A stretch of 64,000 nt of DNA from an uncultured Acidobacteriota bacterium (lineage in GTDB: Bacteria > Acidobacteriota > Terriglobia > Terriglobales > Acidobacteriaceae), in assembly GCA_963762385.1 (NCBI GenBank), contig CAVXKN010000005.1, positions 62,245-126,244 of the forward strand, written 5' to 3'. The notes under the pieces were generated by a model. That model was not told where the DNA came from. It made no database searches and saw only the letters and a program-made list of their open reading frames with translations. The position numbers were made by a program, and so were the translations under genes. Below are positions 12,754 through 30,215 of this stretch, piece after piece. Position 1 is the first letter of the stretch; each line of letters begins with the position of its first letter.

Positions 12754-12813
12754 TGCAGTTGAGTGGAGCGTATCCGCTGTAAATCTCACAGACGAGGCGG
12801 AGGGAGTTGCCAA

Positions 12814-13158: not shown

Positions 13159-13332
13159 GTCGGGCCATGCCTTAGAAAACGACTGTTCTTGGCATTGGCC
13201 GTCGCTGCACGTTCACTGCCTTCGTTTTCGAAAATATCGCATGCGCTTTGTGACGGCGCTCACATTCTGACGTGACGCGGGACCGCGCGCATTCTTCCGA
13301 TTTGCGATGGAATTGAACCAGGGTGAGTTCTT

Positions 13333-14403: not shown

Positions 14404-14512
14404 TCTCTCGCGTCGCGGAGAAGATTATCGATCCCCATCACGGGACGACGTGACGGCATTCACAGCCTGCGCGTCCGGAGATTGTTACGCTCAATAATAA
14501 AAGGAGACGAAC

Positions 14513-14965
14513 ATGGAAACGAAATATAACTATCACGCCAGCGCGCAGTGGCATCAGCACAATCACGGTGTCGTCGAACTGGAGCATGGCGCACCCCGCC
14601 TCATCAATTTCTCTGCCCCACCTGAGTTCGGCGGTGAACCCGGATTCTGGACGCCGGAACTTTTCTTTTTGACTGCTGTAGCCACTTGTTTTGCCGCAAC
14701 ATTCCGTGCCGTGGCCAGCGCGTCGAAATTGGATTTCCAGGGTATCGAAATCGCCGTCGATGGTGTGGTTGAAAAAGAGCCCGGCGGTTTCCGCTTTACG
14801 AAAGTCACTCTGAAGCCGGTGGCGATCATTTTCGCGGAACAAGAGCGTGAACGCGCCCAGCGCCTTCTGGAGAAGGCAGAAAAGCTATGCCTGGTTAACC
14901 GCTCGCTTTCCTGCACGGTCGCACTTGAGCCGAAAATCTTGGTGGAAAATCCAGTTACGGCTTGA
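14513..14965 (+). CDS. OsmC/Ohr family peroxiredoxin-like protein
   Basis: 150 aa. PEFGGEPGFWTPELFFLTAVATCF and AEKLCLVNRSL carry the two conserved Cys regions of OsmC. Confidence 0.82.
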   Translation: METKYNYHASAQWHQHNHGVVELEHGAPRLINFSAPPEFGGEPGFWTPELFFLTAVATCFAATFRAVASASKLDFQGIEIAVDGVVEKEPGGFRFTKVTLKPVAIIFAEQERERAQRLLEKAEKLCLVNRSLSCTVALEPKILVENPVTA

Positions 14966-14986
14966 ACATTTCACCTTCGTCGCTCA

Positions 14987-17696
14987 CTACGGAAAGCGCA
15001 CATCCAGGCTGTAAATCTCTTGTGTGCTTCTATCCCGCATGAGAAGCGCCGAATCGTCGGGGGCCAGCCCGACCCAGAACTCCCACGGATCGAATCCGCG
15101 TGGAATTTCTTTCAGGCTGAATAAGTGCTCCACTTTGCCATCGGAGACGCTCACGCGCACCAGGTCGTCGATGTCGTCGGAATAATCCTCCGCGTACAAA
15201 TGCTTTCCGTCATGCGACCAGTTCTCGAAAGCGAAAAGAGACTGCGCGAGCTGCGACCAACTCCTCTTTTCCATATCGTAGAGCATCATCTTCGTAGAAT
15301 CTGTGGAGAGCGCCGCCATGTAGCGTCCATCCGGCGAAACGCGCGGACTGAACAGTTTTTCCGACCCAGGCACGTCCGAGACTTGCGATGTCTTCAAGTC
15401 CACGATGCGAATGTTGGGACCCGGTGCGGACGCGTATTCCAGCCAGGGAATTCCTGCGAACACGATCGAATCTCCGTCGGGCATCCATGTCGGATCGCCA
15501 TAGTTGCGGTCTCCAACGGTCACTTCGCTAGGCGTGCCGCCCTCGGCTGGTATCACGAATACGTGCCATGGCCTTCCCGGACGCGATGCTATAAACGCGA
15601 TCTGAGTTCCATCCGGTGACCAGCGCGGCGAATGCACCTGCATCGGCGCATAGGTGAGTTGGGTCCGGGAACTTCCGTCCAATTTGCTCCGCCACAACGT
15701 GAGTTCCGGATGCGCAACGTAGGTCATCCACTCGCCTTTGCGCTGGATATCGGCTTCGCCGGCCGACACGCCAGGCATGTAGATGGAAAACTGCGACCTG
15801 CCATCCAGTCGGATCAAATCGAACCGGCGCTGCTGTCCGATCACGAACAGCTTCTTTCCATCCACACTCGGCGTTGGATTGCTGAACATGAGCGGTCCCA
15901 CCGTGAGCTGTGTCGGTTCCGCAGCAGGCTTGCGAAAGAGTGACCCACCCTCACGCAAAGCCCAGATGTTCTCGCTGTGATCGCGAGTCGATTCGAACAG
16001 GAAGTATTCTCCATTGGGTGTCCACGCCCCGCCGGACTCTTGCGCTGGCTTGTTCCACCCCGGCAACAGCGGATGCAAACCTTTGCCGTCGGCTGAGACC
16101 TCCCACAACGATGACGTGTGCTGGCTGGTGTTTCGTATCGTGAAACGCAAACGGCGGCCATCAGGAGAAAATCGAGGCGCTAAAGGAACTCCCTGTACCG
16201 CGACGAGTTCGCGCGAATCGCTTCCGTCCGCATTGCACGAATACAAACTCGAATTCCTGGCATACACGATGTGCTGGCCGTCGGGCGCCCACGTGGCGGC
16301 GTGGGCGAGAATGCCTCCCACAGGCCGCATCGACCCGGCAGGGACCGGCAAAACCCAAACCGGCCACTCGGTCTGCGAACCCTCCGCCACGCCTTTGACG
16401 AGCAATTCGGAACGGCCTGGATAGAAATCGTAAATGTCGGCGCTTGCCAGTGAGGTTGGCACGGGCGCTGTCTCTCCGCCCGAAGTCGAAACCTGCATCA
16501 GGAGCGAGTGACCGCTCAGATGCTCGGAAAAATATAGCCGAGCGCCGTCCGTGACTAGAGAGCGCTTCGATGTGCCGTCGTTGGTAATCTGCAACGACGA
16601 AAACACAGCCGGCGGCGACTGTGGCGATCTTGCGAACAAGAAGATTGCAACCAACACTGCGACTGCGATCAAGCCCAACGTCACCCACCTAGCGATACTT
16701 ACCTTAGGTTGAGGTTCAGGAGTAGCGGCAGCCGCAGCAAACATCGCGCGAAGTCTGTCTTTCGAATCCGGCACCCGCCTCGGGGACGAACCGGCAGCGA
16801 GACCTGATCCCGTCTCAATCTCCCGGCGCAGGCGCTGCAAATCGCCGCGCATTTCAGCCGCAGTTTGATATCGCAGCTTGGGATCTTTCTCGAGAGCCTT
16901 CGTGACGATGCGTTCAAGCTCCGGAGGCGTCGCCGGATTAAATCGCAGAGGTCCCTCGGGCGCGCTGTGAATGAGCGAGTCGAAAAATGCAGCTGTAGTC
17001 TGCCCCTGAAAGGGCAGAACCCCCGTCGCCATTTCATACAGCACGATCCCAAACGAGAACAGATCGGTGCGGCAGTCCAGCGGCCGGCCCAACGCCTGCT
17101 CCGGCGACATGTAATGAATGGTTCCGAGAGCAGAACCCATGCGAGCCAGATCTTCTGGCGACTGCGTCACGCCGCCAAACGTATTGCCACTGACGCTGGC
17201 TTCGTCTCCAAGCGGTGAGCTTCGCCAGTCCGAAATCCAGAATCTTGGCGTGGCCGCGCTTGGTGACGAAAATGTTTGCCGGATTGATATCGCGATGAAT
17301 GATGCCATGCGTGTGCGCGGCGTCCAGCGCGTCGGCAATCTCGATTCCGAGCCCGAGCAGAAAGTCAATTTCCAGCGGACGCCCCGCAATGCGGTGCATC
17401 AAGGGCATGCCGTCCAGAAATTCCATGGCGATGAAGGCTTCGCCGTCCAGCTCACCAATGTCGTAAACCGTACAAATATTCGAATGATTCAGCGCCGATG
17501 CGGCTTCGGCTTCGAATTGAAAACGGGCGAGCGCCTGCGGATCATGAGCAACCTGCTCGGGCAGGAGCTTGAGCGCGACGAAGCGATGCAGCCGCATGTC
17601 CTCGGCCTTATAAACCACCCCCATGCCGCCGCCGCCGAGTTTCTCGACGACGCGGTAGTGCGAGATGGTTTGTCCAATCAATCTTTCGTCGATCAT
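14987..17696 (-). pseudogene. Ser/Thr protein kinase fused to a TolB-like (PD40/WD40-like) beta-propeller, interrupted by a 1-nt frameshift near 17216-17222
   Basis: The N-terminal kinase part ([33 protein letters not shown]...[10 protein letters not shown]...ILDFGLAKL) is in the frame of ORF 17034-17753. The continuation ([11 protein letters not shown]...[10 protein letters not shown]...TM...propeller) is in the frame of ORF 14987-17389. An intact paralogue lies at 48764-51520. Confidence 0.8.
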
Positions 17697-17748
17697 TCGA
17701 AATGCCCGTCTGTCAGGTCGTCTCATCTTACGGACGCCGCTCCAGCCC

Positions 17749-17764
17749 GTCAATGAACCCCAGG
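17749..17764. repeat. left copy of the 16-bp direct repeat GTCAATGAACCCCAGG
   Basis: Exact match to 26310-26325 in the same orientation. Confidence 0.8.
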
Positions 17765-17797
17765 GGGATAGCTATAGAGCCGAGAAAATTCCTACAC
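17765..17797. repeat. left terminal inverted repeat (G)GGGATAGCTATAGAGCCGAGAAAATTCCTACAC
   Basis: Matches the reverse complement of 26275-26309 in two identical blocks (16 nt and 13 nt) separated by a 5/6-nt variable core. Confidence 0.75.
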
Positions 17798-18461
17798 TCT
17801 TACGGGCATGGGACCGAGTGCTAGCGAAGGGCGTCTCGGAGAACGACACCAAATTCTCAATGAGTGTAATTAATCGCGATGTTACGCCAACAATCCCGAT
17901 CATACGGTGCAATGCGTTTGGGAGATCGGGGACTGGTAAGGGTTTTCCTTACCTCAACTGTGCTAAGCACTTTACCTCAGCGGTGCCATTTACCACCTTC
18001 ATGATGGAGGACTATTGTGTTGCGTGAGCAGTTCTGGGGAGAACTGTTAAGGAGAGCGTCCCTGACTCGGGGGAGGCTCGGACGCTCTCGCCATGAACTA
18101 CCGAGTATTGACCAAAACTAGTGCAGGCAGTAGATTCGCTTCCGCGCTGGACGGCCCCTTCCCCCAAGAATTTGGGTTGCACGGTTGCCAGACGTCGCAT
18201 GCCCGGCCCCCCAGCGCCTTATTCTCCACTTCGTCGGGGAGAATGACTCAGATGTTCTGGGAACTTGTGTTAGCTGCTTTGGCAGGGTGGACGGTGCTGC
18301 CAGCGTTAGTATGGGCGCTAGCTAACGAAATCATGCGCTTAATCTGATTCCCACAAAAGGTGGTTGTTGTCGTATTCAGGCCATTTATCCTCAAAACCCC
18401 GGTGAGTGTATCGCGATGTTGCGTCAACCGGCAGCCGCTCGCGGATGAAACGAAGAGAAAG

Positions 18462-19114
18462 TTACTCGAACATCCAGCCCGAGAGTCCGTGTTTTTGATA
18501 AAGCAAACGCAACTTGTCGCGCTCTATGCACTCTTCATCTGAACACGAGCGAGCCTTGGTAAAGTCGCGGTTGGCGATAGCCTCTTCCATGCGGTTCACG
18601 ATTGACCTGACCCGGGCCTGCAATTCGACCACATCCTGAGGACGCGGGCCGGGTTCTCTGACGAATTTCTCGGTTTTGGAATCATCGTGCGGGTTTCGTT
18701 TTAGCTCCTCACGAGTCGAGAGCAGACCGAGACCGCGTTCCCGTAGTAACACCGCTGCAAGGCACTTCTCATCGCGAAGTAGGCCGAGCAAAAGATGCTC
18801 AGTGCGAATCTTCTCGGAGGGAAGCTGATCCGCTTCTTCTGTTGCCAGGAACAGCACACACTTGGCAGTGTCGCTGAGCGGAAGGTCTTGGGTGCCCGGA
18901 GCTATGCCATGAACAGGCTTGCTTCGCTCGATCCTTCCCACACTTTTTCCGCAGCCCACGGCGAACCAAAAAAGCGCCGGGCGAGCCCCATATCAGCCCG
19001 AAGTAATCCTAAAAGCAGTTGCCCGGTTTCGATTTCCGGGCTTCCGAGATGGTGTGCCATGTAGCGCGAGAAAAAGATTACGCGCCTTGCCGGTTCGGAA
19101 TAACGTTCAAACAT
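18462..19114 (-). pseudogene. Clp N-terminal (Clp_R repeat) plus UVR-motif protein, frameshifted in an A5 run (18944-18948 on the + strand)
   Basis: Part 1 is MFERYSEPARRVIFFSRYMAHHLGSPEIETGQLLLGLLRAD (19114 downwards). Part 2 is ...DLPLSDTAKCVLFLATEEADQLPSEKIRTEHLLLGLLRDEK plus a UVR-like ANRDFTKARSCSDEECIERDKL in the other frame. Adding one A restores ...GSPWAAEKSVGRIERS... Confidence 0.7.
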
Positions 19115-19347
19115 GGGTTCCTCACAGAAAGTATAGACGGGAATAGAAACGTAACTGTCGAAACCAGGCCCTAGCACTCGTTGAGGGGTTTTGAGCGTAA
19201 TCGGGATGTTACAACAGTTATCCATTTGCTAGGTTTTCTAAAAGGGAGAATGGAGCCGTTAGAAACTGCCGGGATTACTTCCGAGTTGCCAACAATTTCG
19301 GAGAGGAGCGATGTCGTCGCCGACGCCTGTCGACAAGCTGGCGGTTG

Positions 19348-21273
19348 TTATCGAGGCAAACCGATGCGCTGCAACAATTGTTGGAAGCGGGGATCGGATC
19401 TAATGCTAGCTTCGAGTGGCGTTCTGTTTATAAGAATAAGTCCGCCGTCGCGGTGCTTATACTGGACATCCAGCACTTCGAAAGCACGATCAAGGTCTCC
19501 CATCGCTGCATAGAGACCCGCTGTAGATCCTGCGTCGGGCAGAACGCCGCCCGGGCTATTCTTGGCCGCTCTCCTCATACAGTCCTGCGCCTTGGTCTTT
19601 TTTCCCGCCAGCATGTATGTGGTTGCCAAATCCAACAACATCCAGAGATTGTCACCAGAGAGAGCGGCCGCCCGCTCTCCTTCGGCGATGGCCTCGGGAA
19701 ACATGTGTTGTTGGGCGTAAATCTGCCCGAGCACACGGTGCGCGTGGGCGAAATTTGGGTCCATGTCAATCGTGGCGCGGGCCTGTTGAACCGCCTCGTC
19801 ATACCTGTGCGCCCAGTAAAGCATCTCCGCCATATCCGTATTGATGATGGCCGAAAGCGGATCAGTGTCACGAGCACGTTTTACCTCTGCCACGGCTTCG
19901 TTCATCTGTCCCAGTGCCGCCAGATCGATTGCGTACCATTGATGAGCAATGGAATAGTTGGGATTGAGATCAATGGCGCGTTTGAATTCCTCTTCCGCCT
20001 CTCGAAATTTCCACTCGTAATGCATTTCCACAAACGCCAGCGAAGTGTGCGCATCCGCGAGAGAATCGTCGAGGTTTATTGCGGTAACCGCCATCTCTCT
20101 TGCTTTGGGCATTGCTATATCGCGGATCCTCGTGTCGGGCAATGAACCAAGCAGGGCGTAAGCATCAGCCAGACCGGCGTAAGCCTGTGCATATTTCGGG
20201 TCTTCGGCGACCGCCGCCTGAAAATACTCGATCGCCTTGAGGTATCCCGCCTCACTGCGGAGATTCCAGAAGTACCGGCCTTTCAAGTAGTTCTCGCGAG
20301 CTTGGGGACTGACCACAGTCGAGGCCGCCAGCCGCTGCGGCACCGGCGGTGCGATTTCCTTCTGTATTTGCCTTGCGATGCTGCGCGAAACTTCGTCTTG
20401 CAGGGTGACCAGGTCGCGCAGGTCGCGTTCGTAGGACTCAGCCCACATGTGCTGATCGGTTGCGGCGCGCACTAGCTGTGCGGTGATGCGGACTCGATCC
20501 CCGGAGCGCAGCACCGCGCCTTCAATGATTCCATCGACACCCAACTCCCGGGCAATTTGCGGCAGCCTCTCGTGCGAATCTTTGTACCGCATGATCGAGG
20601 TGCGGGAGATGACTTTAAGACCGGGAATCTTCGCCAGATCGGTAATCAAAGCCTCGGTCATGCCGTCGGCAAAATACTGCTCCGCAGGGTCAGCCGAGAG
20701 ATTTTGCAGTGGCAGTACCGCCAGCGACCGTATGGGCTCGGCCCCGGCACTGCGGAGGCGCTTCCACACTGGCCACGTCAAGATCAAAACCGCCAGCAAT
20801 ACAGACAGTACGGCAATCGAGTAGGTCAGACTCAGGAAGCGATGCCGGGGAGGGACATTGTCACGAACTGCACTTTCAGGAACCCCGGAAGACGATTGTG
20901 AGCTGCCCGGAGCTGACAAAACGTTGGTATCCGAGGCAATGCTGCCAACCTCTCGAACCTGCGCAATGAACCGATACCCACGCCTGGGGACAGTTTCGAT
21001 GTATCGCGAGCCGTCTTCTCCGTCCTGCAATGCTTTGCGCAATACCGAGACATGCTGGGCCAGGTTCGATTCTTCGACGAAGGTATCCGGCCAGACCTTT
21101 CGCAGCAGTTCGTCTTTTTCGAGCAGGTGTCCTCGATTCTGAACCAAAACTACCAAGGCGTCGAACGCCTTCGGGGGTAGGTGTACCGGTGCCTGGTCGC
21201 GAAGCAGCAGCCGCTCGGCGGGATTCAAGCGAAATGAGCCGAACTCGAAGATCATCTTTGTCTGCGCGGACAT
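19348..21273 (-). CDS. CadC/OmpR-type winged-helix transcriptional regulator with a TM segment, TolB_N-like domain and TPR repeats
   Basis: FEFGSFRLNPAERLLLRD...YIETVPRRGYRFIA (wHTH). TM segment LSLTYSIAVLSVLLAVLILTW. Then SLAVLPLQNLSADPAEQYFADGMTEALITDL, followed by multiple TPR-like repeats. Confidence 0.85.
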   Translation of the reverse strand: MSAQTKMIFEFGSFRLNPAERLLLRDQAPVHLPPKAFDALVVLVQNRGHLLEKDELLRKVWPDTFVEESNLAQHVSVLRKALQDGEDGSRYIETVPRRGYRFIAQVREVGSIASDTNVLSAPGSSQSSSGVPESAVRDNVPPRHRFLSLTYSIAVLSVLLAVLILTWPVWKRLRSAGAEPIRSLAVLPLQNLSADPAEQYFADGMTEALITDLAKIPGLKVISRTSIMRYKDSHERLPQIARELGVDGIIEGAVLRSGDRVRITAQLVRAATDQHMWAESYERDLRDLVTLQDEVSRSIARQIQKEIAPPVPQRLAASTVVSPQARENYLKGRYFWNLRSEAGYLKAIEYFQAAVAEDPKYAQAYAGLADAYALLGSLPDTRIRDIAMPKAREMAVTAINLDDSLADAHTSLAFVEMHYEWKFREAEEEFKRAIDLNPNYSIAHQWYAIDLAALGQMNEAVAEVKRARDTDPLSAIINTDMAEMLYWAHRYDEAVQQARATIDMDPNFAHAHRVLGQIYAQQHMFPEAIAEGERAAALSGDNLWMLLDLATTYMLAGKKTKAQDCMRRAAKNSPGGVLPDAGSTAGLYAAMGDLDRAFEVLDVQYKHRDGGLILINRTPLEASIRSDPRFQQLLQRIGLPR

Positions 21274-21593
21274 AAGGCATTCACAAAAGCTATAGAAAAA
21301 CTTTATGCAAGCCTAAAGACCACTAAACGGTTTTACGGCTAATGTACAGGGCGCGACGGGGGAACCCGATCGGGGCTAATTGCGCCGGGCGCTTCACATT
21401 CTACACCCCTGAGAACCCACGCCTATGGCGGCAATTCGCTGGGGTTGGCTTCCTTCAGCGATGGGGGTGGTGCCGGATTTCGAGGACCAGTTTCCGTCTT
21501 TCGCATAGTTTTCGCCACGCGTCGAAGCTTGGCCGATGCCATTTGCGGGACGGACTGGCTGCTGTTAGCACACTAGCTTCTAAGGAGGGTTCT

Positions 21594-22607
21594 ATGGTCC
21601 GCATTAGCGTTTGGTTATGTATGATTGCGCTTCTCGTTTGTACTCTGCCCATGGCCGCTCAGCAATCCGCAAGTCCCGATGAGCCGGGAGCCACCGTCAG
21701 CGGCTCGGGCACCAAGGACTTCATTCCCATCTGGACCAACAGCACGACGCTGGGGAGTTCGGTGCTATTCCAGTTGGGCGCGGGAGCCAAGGCCAAGGTG
21801 GGCATCGGCACCACGACACCAAAATCCACGCTGGATGTGAAAGGCGGAGGCACGATCCGCGGGTTGTTTAGCTTGCCGGCGACCGGCACGGCTACGACGA
21901 CTACAGGCTTTAACTCGCAGCCCATTAATCTGGCGGCTTCGGTGTTCAACAGCACCGTTGGCGCAGCTGTCAATCAGAACTTCCAGTGGCAAGCCGCGCC
22001 GGTGGGCAACGACACCGACACTGCAACGGGATTGCTGAATCTGCTGTACTTCCCCGGAACCTCCTCGCCAACAGAGATTTTGAGCATCGCCAGTAACGGA
22101 CAGATCACGTTCGCCGCTGGGCAGACTTATCCGGGAGCCGGAACGGTGACCAGCGTCGGGAGCGGACTGGGCCTGACGGGGGGACCGATCACGACCAGCG
22201 GCACACTGGCAATCAACACTGCCGTGGTTCCCCAGTTGGGCACGGCAAACACCTTCACGGGCAATCAGACAGTGAATGGCAATGTGAGCGTTGTTGGCGG
22301 CGTTATCTCTGTCGGCGGGTCGAGAGCCCTGAGTTGCACGCGCAACTGCGGGGCTATAGGCTCCATCCCCAGCCCTGGCACCTCAACTTATTCCACGGGT
22401 AAAATCGCGGCCCCACCCGGGTATTCGCTGACGGGCTGCAGCGCGTATTGGGCAAGCAGCACCTCCTGCGGGACAATCGTGTATCCGAATAACGTAAATT
22501 TAAACGCGCTTGACGATGGCGCTGGGGCGTGCCACGCGATGGGATATAACAACAGCGGCGGTACTCTTGCGTCCTGCGCCTGCGCGACTGCCTGTCAGCT
22601 GCCTTAA
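21594..22607 (+). CDS. secreted protein with a tail-fibre-like N-terminal region and a Cys-rich C-terminal domain
   Basis: SD AAGGAGGG precedes ATG 21594, and the signal peptide is MVRISVWLCMIALLVCTLPMAAQQ. KVGIGTTTPKSTLDVKGG and TFTGNQTVNGNVSV are motifs common in tail-fibre-like proteins. The last ~90 aa contain 8 Cys. Confidence 0.65.
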   Translation: MVRISVWLCMIALLVCTLPMAAQQSASPDEPGATVSGSGTKDFIPIWTNSTTLGSSVLFQLGAGAKAKVGIGTTTPKSTLDVKGGGTIRGLFSLPATGTATTTTGFNSQPINLAASVFNSTVGAAVNQNFQWQAAPVGNDTDTATGLLNLLYFPGTSSPTEILSIASNGQITFAAGQTYPGAGTVTSVGSGLGLTGGPITTSGTLAINTAVVPQLGTANTFTGNQTVNGNVSVVGGVISVGGSRALSCTRNCGAIGSIPSPGTSTYSTGKIAAPPGYSLTGCSAYWASSTSCGTIVYPNNVNLNALDDGAGACHAMGYNNSGGTLASCACATACQLP

Positions 22608-22780
22608 AGGGTTGGAGCACTAACGGGCAGTAATCGGCTTTGGTCCGGGATTTTTTTCCACGTACGGGTTGGCACAGGTGGCATATGTGTCAACCCGGCT
22701 CTTTCTTGATTTCGCAAAACTCGCCGGGTGCCCCATTTCTCGCGTTTCTTTGCGAGAAGTGGGGCCTCTTTTCTCTAATC

Positions 22781-22930
22781 CTACGCGATCCCCAACTGTT
22801 TCTGAATTTCCTGCAGCGGCACGCCCTTCGTCTCCGGAACCATGGTCTTCACCCAAATGAGTTGCAGAACCATCATTCCCGCTATCAGTTTTGACGGCAA
22901 AGGAAACGTGAACGGAGTCGATTCCATTAA
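22781..22930 (-). pseudogene. 3'-terminal stub of an MFS sugar-porter gene (last TM helix plus tail only)
   Basis: ...LIAGMMVLQLIWVKTMVPETKGVPLQEIQKQLGIA matches the conserved sugar-porter C-terminus (PETKG..LEEI). There is no upstream transporter body. Confidence 0.55.
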
Positions 22931-23303
22931 CTTCAGTTGGGGCGGAGCTAGAGCAATCCATTGAAGCGATTCTTGGACCGATTCATCAGCCATTTTTCAA
23001 TGCTTCGTGAATGAATCTATCGTCGATCCAGTAGCATTTTTTCAGACCGAGGACTCACGTTTTGACAGCCCGGTCAATGCATTATGAAAGAGCGCCCCGA
23101 TTGAGGGAGGCGAATGGATGGCAGCCGCCTGCGCTCCGCTACGCTGTGCAGGGTTTCGCTCCGCTCCGGCGGCGAGAGAGTAAGTGGGTGCGGTGAGAAA
23201 GAAGAGCAAAGGGGGCGTAGGCAGATCGGCAAGAGGAATGGCACTGTACCTTGGGAGAAGATAAGCGTTGGCACGAATGATCTTCCCCCAAGGAGGCAAC
23301 TGC

Positions 23304-24002
23304 ATGAGTCGCGACATCAAGTATATCGGCATGAACGTGCACAAGGAAGCGGTGGTGATCACTGTCCTTAATAGCGGTGGCAAGCTGGTCATGGAGTCGA
23401 TTGTCGAAACCAAAGCCAGCAGCATTCTGCAGTTTATCGACGGTCTGCGGGGCGAGTTGCAGGTGACCTGGGAAGAAGGCCTGGGCGGCTTGGCTCTACG
23501 ATCTGCTGCAACCCCAAGTGGCGCGAGTGCTGGTCTGCGATCCGCGGCGCAATGCCTTATTGAAGGAAGGGAGCAAGAGCGACAAGGTAGACGCGCGCAA
23601 ACTGGCCGACTTGTTGCGCACGGGAATGCTGCGCCCGGTCTATCATGGGGAACACGGACTGCGGACGCTGCGCGAGTTGGGGCGCAGCTATCAGACCCTC
23701 AGCCAAGACCTGAACCGAGTGATGAATCGGATCAAAGCTCTGTATCGCGGCTGGAGCATTCCTTGTGCAGGTACCCAGGTGTATGCTCCGCGCGGTATCG
23801 GGAAGAGTGGCTACAGAAGATCGAGCATGCCGGCGTGCATCGGCGTGCCGAGCTACTCTATCAACAGTTGGATGGATTGCAGGGATTGCGACGAACCCTG
23901 CGCCCTGAGTTGCTGGCGGAGAGCCGGAAACAACCTCGATTTCACTGCCTTCAAGGGACTCATGCGGCGTCTTCCAGATCGCACGCTCGTGTACGCAACT
24001 GA
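23304..24002 (+). pseudogene. IS110-family (DEDD) transposase remnant with at least 2 frameshifts and no C-terminal domain
   Basis: MSRDIKYIGMNVHKEAVVITVL...VTWEEG in frame 0. WAAWLYDLLQPQVARVLVCDPRRNALLKEGSKSDKVDARKLADLLRTGML...NRIKALYRGWSIPCAG in frame +1. YREEWLQKIEHAGVHRRAELLYQQLD...LLAESRK back in frame 0. Nothing resembling the Transposase_20 domain follows. Confidence 0.75.
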
Positions 24003-24461
24003 ATACGAGGAAAGGCTTCGACAGTACGAATCGCAGTTGAAGGAGAAGAGTGACAGCACCGACAAGGACAATTGGTAGGGCAGGTCTGTCTCAACTGGCG
24101 AAATCAGGCCGTTACACTCAAACCCCTGTGTCGGCATAGGATTCGCCATCGATCTCGACCGCCCTATCGTGAGGATGGAATTAGGGTCATCCGCTCAGGC
24201 CGGTCAGGTGTTGCAACCAAGCCGTTTACAGTCATTGACTCGGTTGTGACACACCTCTCCAAGCTGCTAGAAGAACCATCCCGACCGCGAGCATTACTCC
24301 ACCAATTGCCGCCGCAACCGGCCAACTGGCTGTCGTTTCTCGAAGCGAACGCCGGTCTGGCGTTTATTTTCCGAGTCCTTGTATGGCATGAGTTTGTTCT
24401 CCTTATTCTTGAGAAAACGCACGACCCTCAAATACGGCGAAATCGTGTTCCCTCCAAATCG

Positions 24462-25013
24462 TTAAACCGTCTTCTTATTATTCTTCTTGCTTCCATTCCG
24501 ACGGGTAGCCTCATTGATGAATCTGACTACCCTTGCGAATGTGATTCGCTTCACCGCTTCGCCACGAACGATTGCCATAATAGTCTTGCTATCTACTTGG
24601 GTCGTACGGGCTGTCTTCCGAATGCCCATCTCCGCGATTCGTTCTCTAGTCTGCACGTTGGCAATCAATTTGCCGTCACTGTATTCCGCGCATCGGAAGT
24701 CCACCATGCTCGGGTCATCTCCCTGCTCCCAGCGGCGAGATGTCTCCTTGCCAACATAACGATGACGATTGGCAACAATATGACTCCGAAAGAGTAGCCC
24801 ACGGGTAATGCTGTCACAGGGATTCCCGTCCCGACCCAAGAATTTGGCTTCCGGATGTTCTCGATACGCACCGAGAATGTTTCCGTAGCACTTAACCTCA
24901 ACCTTCTTTGTCCGACCCTCCGGATCTAAAAGGCAGATGGGGTGCCTCTTTCCACTGTGAGTATCTGTTGCTCGTGTGTTTAACCATTCGTTCCGCTGCT
25001 TGGAGAACGGCAT
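24462..25013 (-). CDS. hypothetical protein with a C-terminal HTH-like segment and basic tail
   Basis: The ORF has coherent coding character. IAEMGIRKTARTTQVDSKTIMAIVRGE looks like an HTH. The start is uncertain: ORF track start is 25172, and MPFSK at 25013 is chosen here. Confidence 0.45.
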   Translation of the reverse strand: MPFSKQRNEWLNTRATDTHSGKRHPICLLDPEGRTKKVEVKCYGNILGAYREHPEAKFLGRDGNPCDSITRGLLFRSHIVANRHRYVGKETSRRWEQGDDPSMVDFRCAEYSDGKLIANVQTRERIAEMGIRKTARTTQVDSKTIMAIVRGEAVKRITFARVVRFINEATRRNGSKKNNKKTV

Positions 25014-25101
25014 GATAAGACTGAAGTTTGATGAATCCTTCCGGCAGGGTACAGAGTTGGAAACAATAGTGGCACGTGAACAAAATTGAAGGGTCGGGTA
25101 A

Positions 25102-26211
25102 ATCCTTTCAGCATTCCGAGAACTGACGGAGTGCTTACAGTCATGCGCATCATTGCTGGAATCAAGGACCAATCAGGCTTGGGACGGGGCGTCGCCACTT
25201 CGCATTCCAGCACCCAAAGAGATTGTCGAGGCAGCAAGCGGAAGTTTCTACATTGCCCAGATGCTATGTCATGAAACTTGTCTAGCCTCGAAAATTACCG
25301 AGGCGCAGCAGACGAGGCCAACACTCGACGTTAGCTCTGAACTCGTGTTCTCACGAGTCATGGATAATCTCTCACGACGGTTCATGAATTCCGCAATGAA
25401 GTTTGCAGGTGGGCCCCGGCTGCGAAGAGGAGGGCGTGCACCGTATCTACACAAACTCAAGTGGCTTGCCGAGGCGAACGAATGGTCGATTTCGCTGGAT
25501 AGAGAAGTTGCGATGCATCCAGAGCAACGCGGTAGCGCTGGGCAGGTTATCGAGAAAGGTTATCTAGAGGCCTTTTTGAGAGATAATCCAGAAGATTTTG
25601 CCAGTATTCTTCATTACCAGGCTGCAACCCATATTCTGACCGTCGAAGACCCACAGTTCGTTTTCTTTCTGCGAAAACTAAGCTGGAATAAGTTTGCGGG
25701 GCGAGTGGGCTACCTCAATATACGGTTTGACTCGAAGTACGATTTTGCACTTTCTTTTGCGGGCGCGGACCGGGCATTCGCTCAACGTTTGTTCGATTTG
25801 CTTGCCGAACAGGAGTTCTCTGTCTTCTACGATGCTAATGAACAATCTCGGATACTTGCTGAAAATGTAGAGGACTATCTTGGCCCGATCTAGAAGTCAG
25901 AAGCGAGCTACGTGGTCGCATTCCTAGGTCCCGAATACCCGAAGAAAATTTGGACGAAGTTCGAGTCGGAGCAATTCAAAAGCAGATTCGGAGAAGGCTC
26001 AGTAATACCAATTTGGTTCACAACCGCAAGACCTGGGATTTTTGACGAGACCAGTCGCATTGGGGGCGTAGAGTTCGACCCCAATGCAGATACCGAAGTT
26101 CAGTTGTCCAAAATTGCCGATCTGCTCACGAAAAAAATGTCGGACCGGCTTATGCCCGGAAATCGTCCTGCCGCCCTGGCCCCGGAAAAGGTTGAGGGAG
26201 CGAGTGGGTAG
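25102..26211 (+). pseudogene. 5'-truncated ATPase-associated domain plus C-terminal TIR domain gene, with an in-frame TAG at 25891-25893
   Basis: ORFs 25153-25893 and 25912-26211 are in the same frame (both mod 3 = 1), separated only by a TAG. Joined, they read YDFALSFAGADRAFAQRLFDLLAEQEFSVFYDANEQSRILAENVEDYLGPI*KSEASYVVAFLGPEYPKKIWTKFESEQF..., a bacterial TIR pattern. No P-loop region lies upstream (stop at 25099). Confidence 0.7.
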
Positions 26212-26274
26212 CCGGTCGCGGAGCGGGCGGGCCGAGATATCCTAATCCTTCCTCAGCATTCGTGCTTCCACCGG

Positions 26275-26309
26275 GTGTAGGAATTTTCCCGGCCTCTATA
26301 GCTATCCCC
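26275..26309. repeat. right terminal inverted repeat GTGTAGGAATTTTCCCGGCCTCTATAGCTATCCCC
   Basis: Reverse complement matches 17765-17797. Confidence 0.75.
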
Positions 26310-26325
26310 GTCAATGAACCCCAGG
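26310..26325. repeat. right copy of the 16-bp direct repeat GTCAATGAACCCCAGG
   Basis: Exact match to 17749-17764. Confidence 0.8.
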
Positions 26326-26450
26326 TGTTATGCGCTCAGGCGGCTGGCCCGGTCCCTGACTCGACACAAACGCGGGTCTCGAAAAGAGCAACCAGTGGAT
26401 GAGAAAGATTTGAGGAATCTATTCGGGATCTGACAGAAGTGATTGCTATT

Positions 26451-26978
26451 TCAGCTGGCGGCAGTAAGTGCGGCACGGCGCTGTTTTCTCGATATCAGGA
26501 CTCCTGCAAACACGGCCAGCCCACACAGCATCGAGTAGAACAACGGGCTTCCACCTTCGGAAACGGCCAGATACTTAAAGTCTCCCTGGTGCTTCGCATT
26601 CTCGATCCAGCCGCTGGCCTGAAACTGATTCGCGGCAGGATTGAATAGAACGGAATACCAGATCGTGTCTTTGCCTTTCTGCGTGGACCAAACGAGCAGC
26701 CAGTCCTTACCTTCGCGAATCCCTTTCACCGAGTTGGGATCACTTGCCTTTACGTCCCCGAAGACGCTGCTCATAAAAGAAACGGAAATTTTGGAAAACT
26801 CATCCGTCTTGCTATTGAACGAAAACGTTCCCGCTACCGTATCGCCCGGAGAAAATCCCGTGAGACTTGCGGAGAAACTGTCCTTGGAGTTCGCGGACGC
26901 GCTTAGCGACGCAGCCAGGAGGAAGATCAAGAAACTGCCAGCGAGCTTACAACTTTGTTTCATCACATTCACCCGCAT
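26451..26978 (-). CDS. small secreted protein with a PEP-CTERM-like (VSEGG variant) C-terminal sorting signal; paralogue of 9125-9649
   Basis: ANSKDSFSASLTGFSPGDTVAGTFSFNSKTDEFSKISVSFMSSVFGDVKASD aligns with ANSNDSFQNANLTGVYHGGDVSGTFDFNSSTHQFSDISVSFVSSVFGDVNVSD. The C-terminus is VSEGGSPLFYSMLCGLAVFAGVLISRKQRR. The start may be the second ATG (26963, MKQSCKL). Confidence 0.75.
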   Translation of the reverse strand: MRVNVMKQSCKLAGSFLIFLLAASLSASANSKDSFSASLTGFSPGDTVAGTFSFNSKTDEFSKISVSFMSSVFGDVKASDPNSVKGIREGKDWLLVWSTQKGKDTIWYSVLFNPAANQFQASGWIENAKHQGDFKYLAVSEGGSPLFYSMLCGLAVFAGVLISRKQRRAALTAAS

Positions 26979-26997
26979 ACTGCAAATCTAATTATCA

Positions 26998-27070
26998 GCG
27001 AGTCTATGCTCGCCGAGTGCGTTGTCAAGACTGATAATTGTTGCAACCGGTTGCAATCTTTTGCAACATG
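26998..27070 (-). promoter_or_regulatory. second copy of the TTGCA-x3/palindrome promoter module (palindrome 27041-27056; -35 is rc of 27023-27028; -10 TAGACT is rc of 27001-27006)
   Basis: The reverse complement reads CATGTTGCAAAAGATTGCAACCGGTTGCAACAATTATCAGTCTTGACAAC-N15-TAGACTCGC, almost identical to 9021-9093. Confidence 0.55.
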
Positions 27071-27465
27071 CCAGATGTGCTAGGAAATAATGGGTGTGCT
27101 GTAAATTTCGCCGAGCAACACCGTTCTGTCCCCGGGCGGCTTCGGTGAAAAGCTTTTCTGCGTTGACCGAGCAAACAGCTAATTGTTCCCCTGGGCAATG
27201 GGAAAATCTTTTCACTGTGAAGACGCTTTCAGTCTTGTTCTTCCTTCCTTAGCATCAATGGATAATCCGTAACACGATGAAGGTTACTATCGTGCTAGAG
27301 AAAGTTTCGAGAGGCATCTTCTCGAACAGCTCATGCCGAGAGCTAACTGCTTTCGCTGGCGCGAGTTCTGATGTTGCGGCGCTGCGGGAAGTAACCCCTT
27401 CGTTGCCAGCCATCCCGTGACTGGCAGTGGCATCGCGATTGCCCTCATACCTGCGAGAACCATAA

Positions 27466-28461
27466 GTGGAGGGGCTCCTGTTTACATTATTGCCATCGCC
27501 GCAGTCACGCTGGAAATTGTTCATGACTGGCTGGGGCGTGCAAGCTTTCTCGCTGGTAGGTCTTCTTATTGTAAGTGCCCGATTCCACCAGGATATTTTC
27601 GTGCCCAAAGATTATCGAGTGACCAACCTCGTGTCGTATGAACCGCTGGTAATCCACCAGCCGCAGCCTGTTATCCCACGCGTACCGGCGCGGTTCGTGC
27701 CGCCTGCGGAGAGCAAGCCGTCGCTCGAGAGCAAACCGGCTGTGGCTGCACTTGTCGTCACTCCGCAGACCCGCGTCGTACCCGAGCGCAAACTGCAGGA
27801 ACCTGATCGCCCCGCGCCGGAGCTGAAACTCGCCAGCAAGATGCCCGAGATTCCCGCTGCATCGGCGTCGAAGATCGTGGCCGTGGGCACTTTTTCCGTC
27901 AGCAAACCGGTGACGGAAGTGGCCAGTAAATCTGCCGCCGCAGTGCAAACCGGCGGCTTCAGTGACCCGAACGGTGTGCCTGCGTCCGAGCATCGCGGGG
28001 CCACCAACATTGCCAACATCCGCGCGGCCGGCTCGTTTGACTTAGCCACTGGATCGGGCCATGGCAATGGGACCGGAAGCACAAGCTCGACTGTGGTGGC
28101 GAGCTCTGGATTCGGCAACGGAGCGATCGTTGATCTCAACAGCGCTGGCATGTATTCCAAAACCGGATCGCACCAGCCCAGCAACGGAGCCAATGCACCC
28201 GTCGAAATCACCTTCAAACCCAAGCCCGATTACACGGATGAGGGACGGAAGCAAAAGATTAACGGAGAAGTTCGCCTGGAAGTGCTGTTCAGATCCGACG
28301 GGCGAGTCCACGTGATACGGGTGGTGCAAGGGTTGGGGTACGGACTGGACGAACAGGCGGTAAAGGCTGCCGAGCAAATCAAGTTCAAGCCGGCTTTGCA
28401 TGAAGGCCAGCCCATTGATTCGATGGCTCAAGTCCACATCATTTTCGAACTTATTTCATGA
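27466..28461 (+). CDS. energy transducer TonB family protein
   Basis: N-terminal TM segment, a Pro-rich linker, and a C-terminal TonB_C domain (PKPDYTDEGRKQKINGEVRLEVLFRSDGRVHVIRVVQGLGYGLDEQAVKAAEQIKFKPA). Confidence 0.8.
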   Translation: MEGLLFTLLPSPQSRWKLFMTGWGVQAFSLVGLLIVSARFHQDIFVPKDYRVTNLVSYEPLVIHQPQPVIPRVPARFVPPAESKPSLESKPAVAALVVTPQTRVVPERKLQEPDRPAPELKLASKMPEIPAASASKIVAVGTFSVSKPVTEVASKSAAAVQTGGFSDPNGVPASEHRGATNIANIRAAGSFDLATGSGHGNGTGSTSSTVVASSGFGNGAIVDLNSAGMYSKTGSHQPSNGANAPVEITFKPKPDYTDEGRKQKINGEVRLEVLFRSDGRVHVIRVVQGLGYGLDEQAVKAAEQIKFKPALHEGQPIDSMAQVHIIFELIS

Positions 28462-30128
28462 GGAGCGCTATGCGCAATTTCAGAACCATCGTTGTCTTGC
28501 TGCTTGTATCCGCGACGGCAGGGTTTGCGGCCGATAACCCGAAAGCTTCGTCGCCGTCCCTCTCCTTCGACCAAACTGTCGACCGGGTGGTAGAGCGCGA
28601 ACGCGGGTTTGTCGCGACCGTGAAGCGTATGCACCCTCTGGCCGAAACTTATATCCAGAACCTCCACGAAGACAGCGACCATAATGTCGAGCCGGCTAGC
28701 GATCAGTATTTCCTGGGGCGGCTTGACCTGAATAATGGGATCAGCGATTCCGTGTTCGAGCGGCAGCGCGAGGGATTTCTGCATCACGTTTTGAATCCCA
28801 TCTCTTCTGCTCTGGAGTACAAGTTTTTGCCGCAGGGTTTCGCGCAGATGGTGGTGCTCGATGGCAACTTCCAGAAAAATAATTATCACTTCACTTTTGT
28901 GCGCCGTGAGTTTCTTGGCGAAACGCGCTGCATTGTGATTGATGTCCAACCTGGGAAAAAAGCGAAAGCCGGGTTGTTTACCGGGAGAATCTGGGTTGAA
29001 GATCGCGACTTCAATATTGTCCGCTTCAACGGGACCTATTCCGATCATTCAAAGTACACGCATTATCTGCACTTCGACAGCTGGCGTTTTAATCTGCAAG
29101 CTGATGTGTGGCTGCCTTCCTACATCTACGTGGAAGAGTCTGGCGCAAAACGCGGCAGCCCAGTGTTCCACGATTTGTATCTCAAGGCGCAGACTCGTCT
29201 GTGGGGCTACGATCCAGAGCAACTGAGTCGCAACGAGGAGTTTACCCAAATTAAAGTTGACAACTCGGTGGACGACCGTCCCGTCGCCAAAGACAATGGC
29301 CCCGTCGAGGCGCAGCGTATGTGGGAACGGATGGCGGAAGACAATGCGTTAGACCATTTGCAGAAGATCGGTCTGCTTGCGCCCGCGGGCGATGTGGACA
29401 AAATCCTGCAGACCGTTGTCGATAACCTCATCATCACCAACAAGCTGCAAATCGAGCCCGATGTGCGCTGCCGCGTACTGCTGACGCTGCCGCTGGAGTC
29501 TTTCACCGTAGGGCATACGATTGTAGTCAGCCGCGGTTTGCTGGATGTGCTGCCGGATGAAGCTTCTTTGGCGATGATCCTCGCCCACGAACTCGGCCAC
29601 ATTGTTTTGGGTGATCACGTCGATACCCAGCTTGCCTTCACCGACCGCTTCTTTTTTGCCGATGCAACTGCCTTCCAACATCTGCATTTTGAGCGGGACG
29701 CTGCAGACGAGCAGGCTGCCGACAACAAAGCGATAGAGTTGCTGGGGAACTCGCCCTACAAGGACAAGCTCAGCAACGCAGGACTGTTCCTCAAGGCATT
29801 GCACGATCATTCATCCGTTCTCACCAGCTTGATTAGCCCGCGGCTGGGCACCAAAATGACGAGCAGGAACGCCACCCGAATGGCGGCACTTTTCACCTCA
29901 GCTCCAGCTTTGGAAAAGCAGCGCCTCGATCAGATTGCCGCTCTTCCCATCGGGAGCCGGGTCAAATTGGATCCGTGGAGCAATCAACTCACGATGATGA
30001 ATGCCAAGCCAGTTGCTCTTTTGTATCCAAGGGAGAAGATGCCGTTCGAGGTCACGCCATTTTTCCCCTATCTAAGCTACAGCCAGGCTGACAGAAAACT
30101 TGTGGCCCAGGGTGCGCTAAATCCCTAA
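28458..30128 (+). CDS. M48-family zinc metallopeptidase, secreted
   Basis: Signal peptide and HExxH in ILAHELGHIVLGDH. The start overlaps the TonB stop (ATGA). Confidence 0.78.
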   Translation: MRSAMRNFRTIVVLLLVSATAGFAADNPKASSPSLSFDQTVDRVVERERGFVATVKRMHPLAETYIQNLHEDSDHNVEPASDQYFLGRLDLNNGISDSVFERQREGFLHHVLNPISSALEYKFLPQGFAQMVVLDGNFQKNNYHFTFVRREFLGETRCIVIDVQPGKKAKAGLFTGRIWVEDRDFNIVRFNGTYSDHSKYTHYLHFDSWRFNLQADVWLPSYIYVEESGAKRGSPVFHDLYLKAQTRLWGYDPEQLSRNEEFTQIKVDNSVDDRPVAKDNGPVEAQRMWERMAEDNALDHLQKIGLLAPAGDVDKILQTVVDNLIITNKLQIEPDVRCRVLLTLPLESFTVGHTIVVSRGLLDVLPDEASLAMILAHELGHIVLGDHVDTQLAFTDRFFFADATAFQHLHFERDAADEQAADNKAIELLGNSPYKDKLSNAGLFLKALHDHSSVLTSLISPRLGTKMTSRNATRMAALFTSAPALEKQRLDQIAALPIGSRVKLDPWSNQLTMMNAKPVALLYPREKMPFEVTPFFPYLSYSQADRKLVAQGALNP

Positions 30129-30215
30129 GCCAATTTTCGGACAATGTTGGCCGTCCGTCGGCCGTTGGAATCAAAACCTCTCCCCAAACTCGCACCGCCG
30201 CTCAGAAAGGACGTA

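Follow-up and report, generated by a model that had tools for sequence, protein, structure and literature searches.

The island at 17765–26309 of the window (the whole 64-kb stretch of DNA analysed) is very probably a non-autonomous, decayed casposon, a reading to which we assign a probability of roughly 0.87. Casposons are large DNA transposons that encode a family-B DNA polymerase (PolB) of their own and are integrated by a casposase, an integrase of the Cas1 family and thus a relative of the CRISPR machinery. As no Cas1 sequence is left in the island, the assignment rests on the terminal inverted repeats (TIRs), the target-site duplication (TSD), and a PolB stub, and the island is a derivative, not an autonomous casposon member. 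The original prediction had left the enzyme class open, with a casposon as one option; this option proved correct: elements with the same TIRs encode Cas1 and PolB, and the island retains the PolB stub.

Repeats at the island ends

The 16-bp direct repeat GTCAATGAACCCCAGG described in the original prediction is exact. Its two copies are the only ones in the 64-kb window, with no further copy at up to two mismatches (expected 0.03), and none of 100 shuffled sequences contained two or more. The repeat stretches to 19 bp (CCCGTCAATGAACCCCAGG) at 17746–17764 and 26307–26325. The added CCC overlaps the G/C run ending the right inverted repeat, so the true duplication is 14–16 bp with an ambiguous edge. 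The inverted repeats also proved to be as first described on comparison of the two sequences. Specifically, the GGGGATAGCTATAGAG block at 17764–17779 is identical to the reverse complement of 26294–26309 (16 nt), the AAAATTCCTACAC block at 17785–17797 is identical to that of 26275–26287 (13 nt), and the spacer between the blocks reads CCGAG in the left repeat and GCCGGG in the right one. The TIR is thus 34–35 nt long and has only two copies in the window. Neither an internal TIR nor a third TSD copy was found in the island. A GC comparison, as had been suggested, gave a lower value for the right third of the island (ca. 0.50) than for the flanks (0.55–0.60).

Table 1. Features of the island and its target, with four elements having the same TIR
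Feature	Location	Strand	Basis or remark
Sigma-70-type promoter of Ser/Thr kinase gene, TTGACG-17 nt-TAAGAT	17725..17753	-	promoter scan
Left TSD copy, GTCAATGAACCCCAGG	17749..17764	+	exact repeat
Left TIR, GGGGATAGCTATAGAG-CCGAG-AAAATTCCTACAC	17765..17797	+	first G common to direct and inverted repeat
Clp_N-domain gene split in two ORFs, putative cargo	18462..19225	-	PF02861, E 2.7e-5 and 0.003
CadC-like winged-helix and TPR regulator, intact, 641 aa, putative cargo	19348..21273	-	PF00486, E 4e-18; TPR families
Cys-rich ORF, 421 aa, putative cargo	21342..22607	+	without Pfam or PADLOC match
Decayed IS110-family insertion sequence, nested	23069..24078	+	PF01548, E 1e-10 on 23518-24078 (DEDD fragment)
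Casposon PolB remnant, C-terminal ~230 aa	24462..25216	-	tblastn with L034 PolB
Split ORF with weak TIR-domain signature, putative cargo	25153..26211	+	PF13676 (TIR_2), E 0.002, below cutoff
Right TIR, GGGGATAGCTATAGAG-GCCGGG-AAAATTCCTACAC on minus strand	26275..26309	-	agrees with family consensus
Right TSD copy, GTCAATGAACCCCAGG	26310..26325	+	exact repeat
Same-TIR element	CAVTKB010000007.1, 207,891-223,371		15.5 kb; TSD GTCAATGCGGCCGT; Cas1 within
Same-TIR element	CAWFVI010000004.1		17.0 kb; TSD GGCAAATGATTAGG
Same-TIR element	Ga0307477_10002160		14.5 kb; TSD GTCCGTCGTTTGAC; PolB and Cas1 both within
Same-TIR element	L066		3.9 kb; both ends present; TSD GCCAATGGTGAGCT

Elements with the same ends

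The island TIR recurs elsewhere in Acidobacteriota, at about 20 loci in genomes and about 70 in metagenomes. Its copies form inverted pairs with matching locus-specific duplications, and wherever both ends are visible, the pair encloses a segment of 4–17 kb with a locus-specific 14-bp duplication. A 14-bp TSD was found in six other family elements. Tandem elements with one TSD-length spacer, as well as solo TIRs, are common in the TIR family (L126 is an example). The view that the direct and inverted repeats are a transposition footprint therefore holds, as the same TIR bounds other elements with their own 14-bp TSDs and two relatives have an empty site.

Cas1 is present in the same-TIR relatives L019/L027, L028, L068/L086, and L100. 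The Cas1 homologues of same-TIR elements match PF01867 (E 5e-33 and 4e-40), and the C-terminus carries HTH_31 (E 4e-5) and a weak double zinc ribbon, DZR (E 0.006). The best PDB match is 6opm_A, which we take to be the M. mazei casposase, and by sequence alone the family Cas1 is barely nearer to it than to a CRISPR Cas1 (71 versus 68 bits). The homologues stand in a conserved module with a PolB of ca. 960 residues, which carries ExoI–III, A, B, C, and KxY motifs and matches PF03175 (“organellar and viral”, protein-primed type) with an E-value of 3e-8, but PF00136 only with 0.09. Elements having this module possess related TIRs and 14-bp TSDs. As several same-TIR elements encode a Cas1 with zinc-binding domain (ZBD) and HTH together with a family-B polymerase, they are casposons. 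A search for the ends in other genomes had been proposed as a means of naming the family, and the copies with Cas1 and PolB name it as casposon.

The exact island TIR was not found around the Cas1 homologues L033–L038; L036 and L037 have TIR subtypes related to, but different from, that of the island. For the L086 and L068 element, the analysis covered ORF positions and searches with Cas1 and PolB as queries. In soil metagenomes, distinct Cas1 clusters with an identity of 66% or above numbered at least 120. As a separate observation, an inverted repeat of 140 nt lies inside L033, and a clear TSD was not seen there.

A DNA polymerase remnant in the island

The region at 24462–25216 matches the L034 PolB with an E-value of 2.7e-35, covering residues 725–957, and its frame is still open over 236 residues. 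The original prediction had taken this region for an HTH protein, which is actually the C-terminus of a casposon PolB. When all ORFs of 15 related elements were compared with the island by tblastn, the stub was the sole match, and a Cas1 tblastn search of the window yielded no remnant (best E 1.8). Neither the stub nor the full-length PolB nor a profile of four PolB sequences had a significant match among PDB sequences. C-terminal PolB stubs recur in L026, L052, L092, and L118. The remnant region shares 82% nucleotide identity with the stub in L026. The truncation points differ (residue ~725 in the window versus ~669 in L026), as expected for independent decay. The stub is directed toward the promoter-side TIR, whereas PolB is directed away from it in four autonomous relatives, which implies an opposite insertion orientation or an internal rearrangement.

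A promoter as insertion target

The integration target of the island is the promoter of a Ser/Thr kinase gene, the ATG of which is at 17696 on the minus strand. The promoter region includes CACCTGGGGTTCATTGACGGGCTGGAGCGGCGTCCGTAAGATG, and the promoter is kept in the kinase orthologues L125, L126, and L127. Read on the opposite strand, the first five nucleotides of the left TSD copy give TTGAC, the −35 box of this promoter. Throughout the family TTGAC forms the end of the TSD, and 17–18 nt and TAnnnT come next on the side away from the element. The repeat sequence changes from locus to locus except for its terminal GTCAA, while the inverted repeat is conserved. For many TIR copies, a −35/−10 promoter follows downstream at a fixed distance. 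Kinase genes are downstream of three copies. Neither a tRNA scan nor Rfam at its gathering threshold found anything in the region or the window, so the target is not a tRNA.

Empty sites, which the original prediction had suggested looking for in relatives, were found in the kinase orthologues L125 (91% amino acid identity) and L127 (90%), each having a single TGGGGTTCATTGAC copy and no TIR. The L125 alignment continues through the repeat into the right flank of the window. The closest strains offered no empty site; the island is present in each of the four long assemblies and in the short-read contigs, and a search via the neighboring 175-aa gene returned near-identical strains only, all with the island. 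Its presence in every closest strain gives no sign of recent mobility, and the island is fixed in its species-level lineage.

Proposed origin and alternatives

An element with a 34–35-bp TIR of the form GGGGATAGCTATAGAG-N5-7-AAAATTCCTACAC would have integrated directly upstream of the kinase promoter. By analogy with published casposase biochemistry, the casposase would have made cuts staggered by about 14–16 bp, one at the edge of the −35 box (TTGAC/G) and the other about 15 bp upstream, and repair of the gaps would have generated the 16-bp direct repeat. The promoter-proximal TSD copy leaves the kinase promoter whole. The Cas1 gene and about 75% of the PolB gene would have been lost later, an IS110 element would have been gained, and the element now carries accessory genes, some intact and some broken. 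Renewed movement would require a casposase supplied in trans by a related autonomous element.

A different enzyme could be suspected from the inverted repeats. Tn3-family ends start with GGGG, contain an internal CGNGAAAA-like block, and are 38 bp long; the island repeats begin with GGGG, have a similarly placed block of this kind, and at 34–35 bp come near that length. Nevertheless, a non-autonomous derivative of a Tn3-family or other DDE transposon with GGGG-starting inverted repeats of ~35–38 bp, moved by TnpA in trans, is hardly credible and in effect refuted by TSD length, as the duplication is 14–16 bp in every member examined and not 5 bp. No DDE transposase is consistently linked to the ends, Cas1 and PolB being linked to them instead. 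No TnpA is present in the island or in the gene tables of L034, L036, and L037, and the sole transposase remnant of the island is an IS110 DEDD fragment, elsewhere an element of its own. The original prediction had already judged a 16-bp duplication too long for the Tn3-like ends, and the likeness is superficial. An att-core duplication had been its other option: if a site-specific tyrosine or serine recombinase, since lost, had integrated a genomic island here, its att core would be represented by the 16-bp repeat and its binding sites by the inverted repeats. Direct repeats of 15–19 bp are typical for att cores, and binding sites of the core type face each other in inverted orientation across the crossover region. 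We consider this origin very improbable, because a locus-specific repeat with only GTCAA constant, next to a conserved inverted repeat, is the pattern of a target duplication and not of a shared att core. Moreover, no integrase appeared in the Pfam scan of the island or in the Pfam annotations already tabulated for L034, L036, and L037, which are full relatives, and the att-core option was abandoned.

The widespread inverted repeat, with its many copies at a fixed distance from −35/−10 and three of them before kinase genes, might also be a dispersed promoter-associated regulatory or REP/MITE-like repeat, the 8.5 kb being bracketed by coincidence or by promoter duplication and not mobile. This is highly unlikely given that the copies form inverted pairs with matching locus-specific duplications, that the pairs enclose Cas1 and PolB, that orthologous promoters lacking the repeat are contiguous with the outer flank of the island, and that the promoter itself lies outside the repeat, in the target. 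The original prediction had named a dispersed repeat unrelated to island borders as a refuting case; the repeat is indeed dispersed, yet it is always an element end adjoining a TSD. Within the casposon reading, the island may never have been autonomous in place, being either a cargo-only “mini-casposon” moved in trans or the collapsed product of at least two tandem insertions. The common solo TIRs and tandem elements with TSD-length spacers, the 3.9-kb L066 with both ends, and the recurrent PolB stubs fit such a history, but the missing internal TIR and third TSD copy and the unequal PolB truncation, as for independent decay, speak against it, and we regard it as possible though rather doubtful.

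Relation to described casposons

The decayed casposon has a TIR (34–35 nt) and a TSD (16 bp, overlapping the TIR) within the published casposon ranges of 25–602 nt for TIRs and 1–27 nt (median 15, often overlapping the TIR) for TSDs. Published casposons (PMC4046053, PMC4779613) agree with the present elements in the length of the TSD, its overlap with the TIR, and the occurrence of solo TIRs and tandem arrays. Family 3 is bacterial, with members such as AceAut-C1 and NitAL212-C1 (Krupovic et al., 2014, PMC4046053). Bacterial hosts, intergenic insertion, TIRs, a TSD of ~14–15 bp (PMC4046053), and variable cargo including R-M genes and nested IS elements are shared with it, and AceAut-C1 likewise has a Cas1 fused at the C-terminus to a zinc-binding domain and HTH. 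However, family 3 has an RNA/DNA-primed PolB that falls inside the family 2 clade, whereas that of the relatives here is of the protein-primed type by PF03175. Most family 3 members encode an HNH endonuclease; among the genes tabulated for L034, L036, and L037, none of this kind was noticed. By PolB type and HNH we provisionally place the elements outside family 3, a separation based on Pfam matches and gene tables.

A protein-primed-like PolB recalls family 1 of Thaumarchaeota, as does the compact core, in which Cas1 and PolB are conserved along with several small ORFs that have no known function. This family differs in having archaeal hosts and targeting the 3′ end of the aEF-2 gene, compared with Acidobacteriota hosts, a Cas1 with ZBD and HTH, and a promoter target here; its casposase is without HTH according to PMC8464041. 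Families 2 and 4 (Aciduliprofundum, Methanosarcina), which have been studied by experiment, have 14–15-bp TSDs with few conserved terminal nucleotides (PMC6614799, PMC4779613), tandem arrays sharing a TSD, solo TIRs, and inactivated copies, and leave the target gene intact, as do the elements here. Sequence outside the TSD (“leader”) matters for their targeting, a role that the promoter spacer and −10 box may play here. Unlike the present elements, with TTGAC as the conserved TSD end, they insert at the 3′ ends of tRNA genes or at particular intergenic sites, and their PolB is of the RNA-primed type and accompanied by an HNH endonuclease.

A literature search on casposons in Acidobacteria found nothing relevant, and the family of the island, in which a PolB of the protein-primed type and Cas1-ZBD-HTH occur together with promoter targeting and tandem arrays, is apparently undescribed. 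We lean toward regarding the island as a decayed copy of a new, abundant casposon family of soil Acidobacteriota, which combines a Cas1-Zn-ribbon-HTH with a protein-primed-type PolB. This family would home to sigma-70-type promoters, where the −35 TTGAC would set the constant edge of the 14-bp duplication, with the spacer and −10 box as leader-like determinant, and would form tandem arrays split by the duplicated site. If so, it would provide a natural “leader-repeat-insert” arrangement paralleling the CRISPR array, and mobile DNA would come to lie just upstream of the promoters of diverse genes, some of housekeeping type (IMPDH, a class I tRNA synthetase, trigger factor). Casposons are regarded as ancestors of the CRISPR adaptation module. 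To our knowledge, the described ones are few and mostly archaeal; experimental casposase work has centered on archaeal families 1 and 2. The island led to a large bacterial group with well-defined ends and a sharply defined target. A promoter target in which one TSD edge carries a conserved motif, next to a leader-like requirement, would make a testable system for target reading by a Cas1 integrase, and it bears on the origin of leader-proximal, repeated integration, the logic of the CRISPR array. In annotation, such elements would explain a class of Acidobacteriota accessory islands without a recognizable mobility gene.

Putative cargo of the island

As originally stated, the island contains no intact transposase or integrase; in the Pfam scan, the IS110 fragment was the single transposase remnant. 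Positions 23069–23667 share 85% nucleotide identity with an IS110 copy in L015, and strains L001 and L039 have a 450-bp deletion within the IS110 region. The IS110 remnant is a parasite of the island, not the source of its mobility. The gene list of the original prediction stood for the most part. Pfam recovered the Clp_N, CadC-like/TPR, and IS110 genes and, weakly, the TIR gene, while the HTH protein gave way to the PolB remnant and the “MFS stub” obtained no confirmation. The PADLOC search of the cargo gave marginal matches only, among them PDC-S66 for the split TIR-like ORF at 25153–26211 (E 6e-4). The product of the Cys-rich ORF is, judging by its sequence, possibly secreted. The CadC-like/TPR regulator is identical at the protein level in L006 and L007. 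Inspection by eye revealed a hydrophobic N-terminal segment in the Cys-rich 421-aa ORF.

Termini and distribution of the island

The 8.5-kb island beside the Ser/Thr kinase gene is most probably (about 0.87) a decayed, non-autonomous remnant in the casposon superfamily. Its footprint, family link, PolB (family-B DNA polymerase) remnant, empty sites and promoter context are directly visible. Both ends carry the direct repeat GTCAATGAACCCCAGG, and a search of all 64 kb that allowed two mismatches gave no third copy (0.03 expected). The terminal inverted repeats (TIRs) lie directly inside; their blocks GGGGATAGCTATAGAG and AAAATTCCTACAC are identical left and right, and the spacer between them reads CCGAG at the left end and GCCGGG at the right end. 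The exact 16-bp direct repeat and the inverted repeats of the original prediction are both present as described, and within the window the direct repeat is unique to the two sites. It can also be read as 19 bp, and because the additional CCC also belongs to the terminus of the right-hand inverted repeat, the real duplication is 14–16 bp with an ambiguous edge. Such overlap of TIR and target-site duplication (TSD) is known for casposons (PMC4046053).

We then scanned GTDB genomes, one per species, with the pattern GATAGCTATAGAG-N3-9-AAAATTCC. Nineteen of the 25 loci are in Acidobacteriota MAGs, and the six in other phyla resemble chance matches. Metagenomes, soil for the most part, gave 83 loci with the same pattern. 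The ~34-nt motif is nearly invariant except for a short GC-rich spacer, and its outer flank is always either GTCAA abutting or TTGAC ~9 nt off, the pair of flanks that a direct duplication starting with GTCAA yields on either side of an inverted-repeat element. Elements with both ends visible have matching, locus-specific duplications in every case (see table). The TIR is dispersed, as in the refuting case named beforehand (a REP/MITE-like repeat unrelated to island borders), yet its copies are transposon ends rather than free-standing REP-like units.

Exact-protein look-ups recovered the locus in several short-read contigs and in three long contigs from metagenomes (ENA ERZ25039473, ERZ25039481, and ERZ25039544). 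The island is present in every close-strain copy, and its TIRs and direct repeats are identical throughout. The repeat-to-repeat length is 8561, 8562, 8104, or 7934 bp depending on the strain, and the differences come from 450 bp deleted at the IS110 remnant and from a shortened Clp_N region. Thus, the island is fixed in the lineage, and internal indels are eroding it.

The close strains differ in further respects. ERZ25039481 is 99.97% identical to the window right of the IS110 remnant (23559–36978) and 98.9% left of it (15993–23108), with its 450-bp deletion separating the two stretches; the step points to a putative recombination boundary within the island. Compared with the 99.97%-identical ERZ25039473, the window differs by a 1-bp insertion at 17212 and by a 1-bp deletion at 21368. 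The former shifts the frame of the kinase, which is intact (902 aa) in ERZ25039473; either the assembly is wrong here or the gene is a pseudogene specific to the strain. The Logan short-read contig ERR11748453_234174, from the right flank, ends within the right TIR at window position 26287. Further TIR copies in that genome or community would produce such a stop, and so would simple exhaustion of coverage.

Features of the window island and related elements
Feature	Position	Strand	Length	TIR, duplication or match
Direct repeat, left	17749–17764		16 bp	GTCAATGAACCCCAGG
Direct repeat, right	26310–26325		16 bp	GTCAATGAACCCCAGG
Kinase promoter (window)	17753..17725	minus		TTGACG-17-TAAGAT
IS110-family sequence (window)	23069–23667
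PolB stub (window)	ORF 24462–25172, homology up to 25216	minus		tblastn E 2.7e-35 to aa 725–957 of the polymerase of related locus L034
CAVTKB010000007.1 element	207,891–223,371		15.5 kb	duplication GTCAATGCGGCCGT
CAWFVI010000004.1 element			17.0 kb	duplication GGCAAATGATTAGG
Ga0307477_10002160 element			14.5 kb	duplication GTCCGTCGTTTGAC
L066 element			3.9 kb	duplication GCCAATGGTGAGCT
L036, complete Cas1-PolB element	2986–17497			TIR GGGGTAGTACTCTTCGGGAAAAATTCCGACCCCCC, 35 nt, perfect; duplication CTCAACAGGATCAA
L037, complete Cas1-PolB element	3398–18091			TIR related but different; duplication CCTAACCGTTTGAC

Empty site at kinase orthologues

Downstream of the island lies the kinase gene, whose clear orthologues are 80–91% identical. 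In two of the loci, L125 (91%) and L127 (90%), conservation with the window extends upstream of the ATG and takes in TTGAC-GGG…GCGTCCG-TAAGAT; this stretch contains one TGGGGTTCATTGAC and no TIR. The uninterrupted site sought in relatives thus exists in both, with a single repeat copy. Joining the right flank of the window, a single repeat, and the left flank gave a reconstructed empty site, whose alignment to L125 crosses the repeat and covers ~34 nt of the window's right flank (CAGGGACCGGGCCAGCCGCC…GCGCAT versus CAGGAACTGGGCCGGCCGCC…GGCACA). In L127, GCGCATGGCACT adjoins TGGGGTTCATTGAC, versus GCGCATAACACC adjoining TGGGGTTCATTGAC in the window. A third orthologue locus, L126 (kinase 84% at the amino acid level), has a solo end of another TIR subtype, GTGTAGCATTTTCCCCTCGTGCCCTTATACCCC (9901–9947), positioned exactly as the window TIR; no partner end was found within 10 kb upstream. 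Either the kinase promoter was struck more than once, or the L126 copy is an older remnant.

Cas1 and PolB of related elements

Casposons are defined by Cas1, PolB, TIRs, and a ~14-bp TSD (PMC4046053). An ORF of ~565 aa homologous to Cas1 lies within the CAVTKB element and adjoins the TIR in locus L028 (PF01867, E 5e-33 and 4e-40). Its C-terminus carries an HTH, together with a double zinc ribbon that matches weakly. The closest solved structure is chain 6opm_A (E 7e-19), deposited as 'CRISPR-associated endonuclease Cas1', which we take to be the Methanosarcina mazei casposase. Protein search gave at least 120 distinct clusters of such homologues at ≥66% identity, nearly all from soil metagenomes. 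Their neighborhoods share a module of a dCMP-deaminase-like gene, a ~960-aa protein, two to three small ORFs, a ~340-aa ORF, and Cas1. The ~960-aa protein has the family-B polymerase motifs DTET, NLPFD, YCRRD, DFTSQYP, KILANSGSYG, CDTDS, and KRY (consensus of four sequences), and matches the protein-primed type PF03175 (E 3e-8), with PF00136 at just E 0.09. Full-length PolB and Cas1 are both held by two elements with the exact window TIR type (Ga0307477_10002160 and L100), and L113, also of the window type, has PolB inside.

In L033, a 5.2-Mb contig, the Cas1-PolB module lies between 140-nt inverted repeats (4941–5080 and 11446–11585, 92% complementary). The repeat overlaps the cas1 3′ end and has a third, partial copy 1 kb on (12473–12552); no obvious TSD was seen for this module.

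Gene content of the island

The original prediction was mostly right about the cargo: Pfam supports Clp_N in two ORFs, a Trans_reg_C and TPR regulator, an IS110 DEDD fragment, and a weak TIR_2 match, but not the 'MFS stub'. The 'HTH protein' is instead the C-terminal ~230 aa of a casposon PolB, and this stub is the sole part of the island matching any ORF of 15 related elements (tblastn). No Cas1 remnant was found in the island by tblastn, nor any tRNA gene or Rfam match in the island region by tRNA and Rfam scans. The L026 element holds a similar PolB stub (82% nucleotide identity), and L052, L092, and L118 hold shorter stubs of the same C-terminal region; hence, decayed copies are common.

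The reading frame of the stub stays open in the window, the sister strains (including L039, 11781–12518), and L026 (6510–7532), and dN/dS between the window and L026 is ~0.14 over 176 codons. Its retention could reflect a domesticated DNA-binding fragment, deletion bias, or divergence while still part of a functional PolB. The island's IS110-family sequence has an 85% identical copy in L015 (7029–7632), just outside a TIR end, which hints that this IS may favor casposon ends or their targets.

Promoters as putative targets

Among 62 non-redundant ends, read outward on the promoter side, 21 show TTGAC (≤1 mismatch) 8–13 nt from the TIR and TAnnnT 16–19 nt later, against 0.29% for random positions in the same loci (binomial P ~6e-38). 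The window target is of this kind, was found independently by a promoter scan, and is followed by the kinase ATG 28 nt beyond. Genes behind targeted promoters are varied and encode IMP dehydrogenase, a class I aminoacyl-tRNA synthetase, trigger factor, a sugar transporter, a TPR protein, and three Ser/Thr kinases. Based on published casposase work, the element 3′ ends would attack two phosphodiesters ~14–15 bp apart, and gap repair after integration would create the duplication, placing the TIR ~9 nt upstream of the kinase −35 box. The promoter-proximal duplication copy keeps −35 and −10 intact, and the kinase gene therefore retains its promoter.

The insertion polarity is fixed: 28 ends have TTGAC 9–13 nt from the repeat, 17 have GTCAA abutting it, and TTGAC directly abuts it in none of the 62 ends whose flanks were read by eye (nearest, L048, where TTGAC begins 4 nt from the anchor). 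Such polarity suggests a role in targeting for the sequence beyond TTGAC, toward the −10 box, although survivorship, in which only non-disruptive insertions persist, may contribute as well. This dependence, as deduced here from flanks, would parallel the 'leader' that the A. boonei casposase was shown to require (PMC6614799).

Relation to known casposon families

The Acidobacteriota elements resemble family 3 (AceAut-C1) in Cas1 architecture, with a ZBD and HTH at the C-terminus, family 1 in PolB type, and families 2 and 4 in TSD length, conserved terminal TSD nucleotides, tandem arrays, and solo TIRs. On the features compared, they are provisionally a new family. The literature searched contained no description of casposons in Acidobacteria or of promoter-targeted casposons; that the family is both truly undescribed and truly promoter-homing has slightly better than even odds.

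Tandem and neighboring elements

All TIR subtypes follow GGGG…AAAA…CCCC, for example GGGTTAGGAGATAG…CCAAAGTTGCACCCCC and GGGGTGGTGTATACGAACGGCAAAATG…. In at least eight other ends, TTGAC runs straight into a different GGG… TIR-like sequence, and several GTCAA-side ends have another TIR after ~14 nt. TIRs one TSD apart correspond to the tandem arrangement of Methanosarcina casposons, which are separated by a shared TSD (PMC4779613); such ends belong to casposons of several subfamilies that sit in tandem or nested at a shared target. Window-type ends lie ~14 nt, one TSD length, from other subtypes in loci L046, L061, L062, L070, L080, L084, L105, and L116, and likewise in L017, L030, L050, L079, L083, L086, L104, and L114. 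In L028 (1935–2514) and L077 (3637–4216), two facing TIR ends ~520 bp apart each have their own TTGAC/CTGAC flank. These pairs are two elements arranged head-to-head around a short segment, which may hold divergent promoters.
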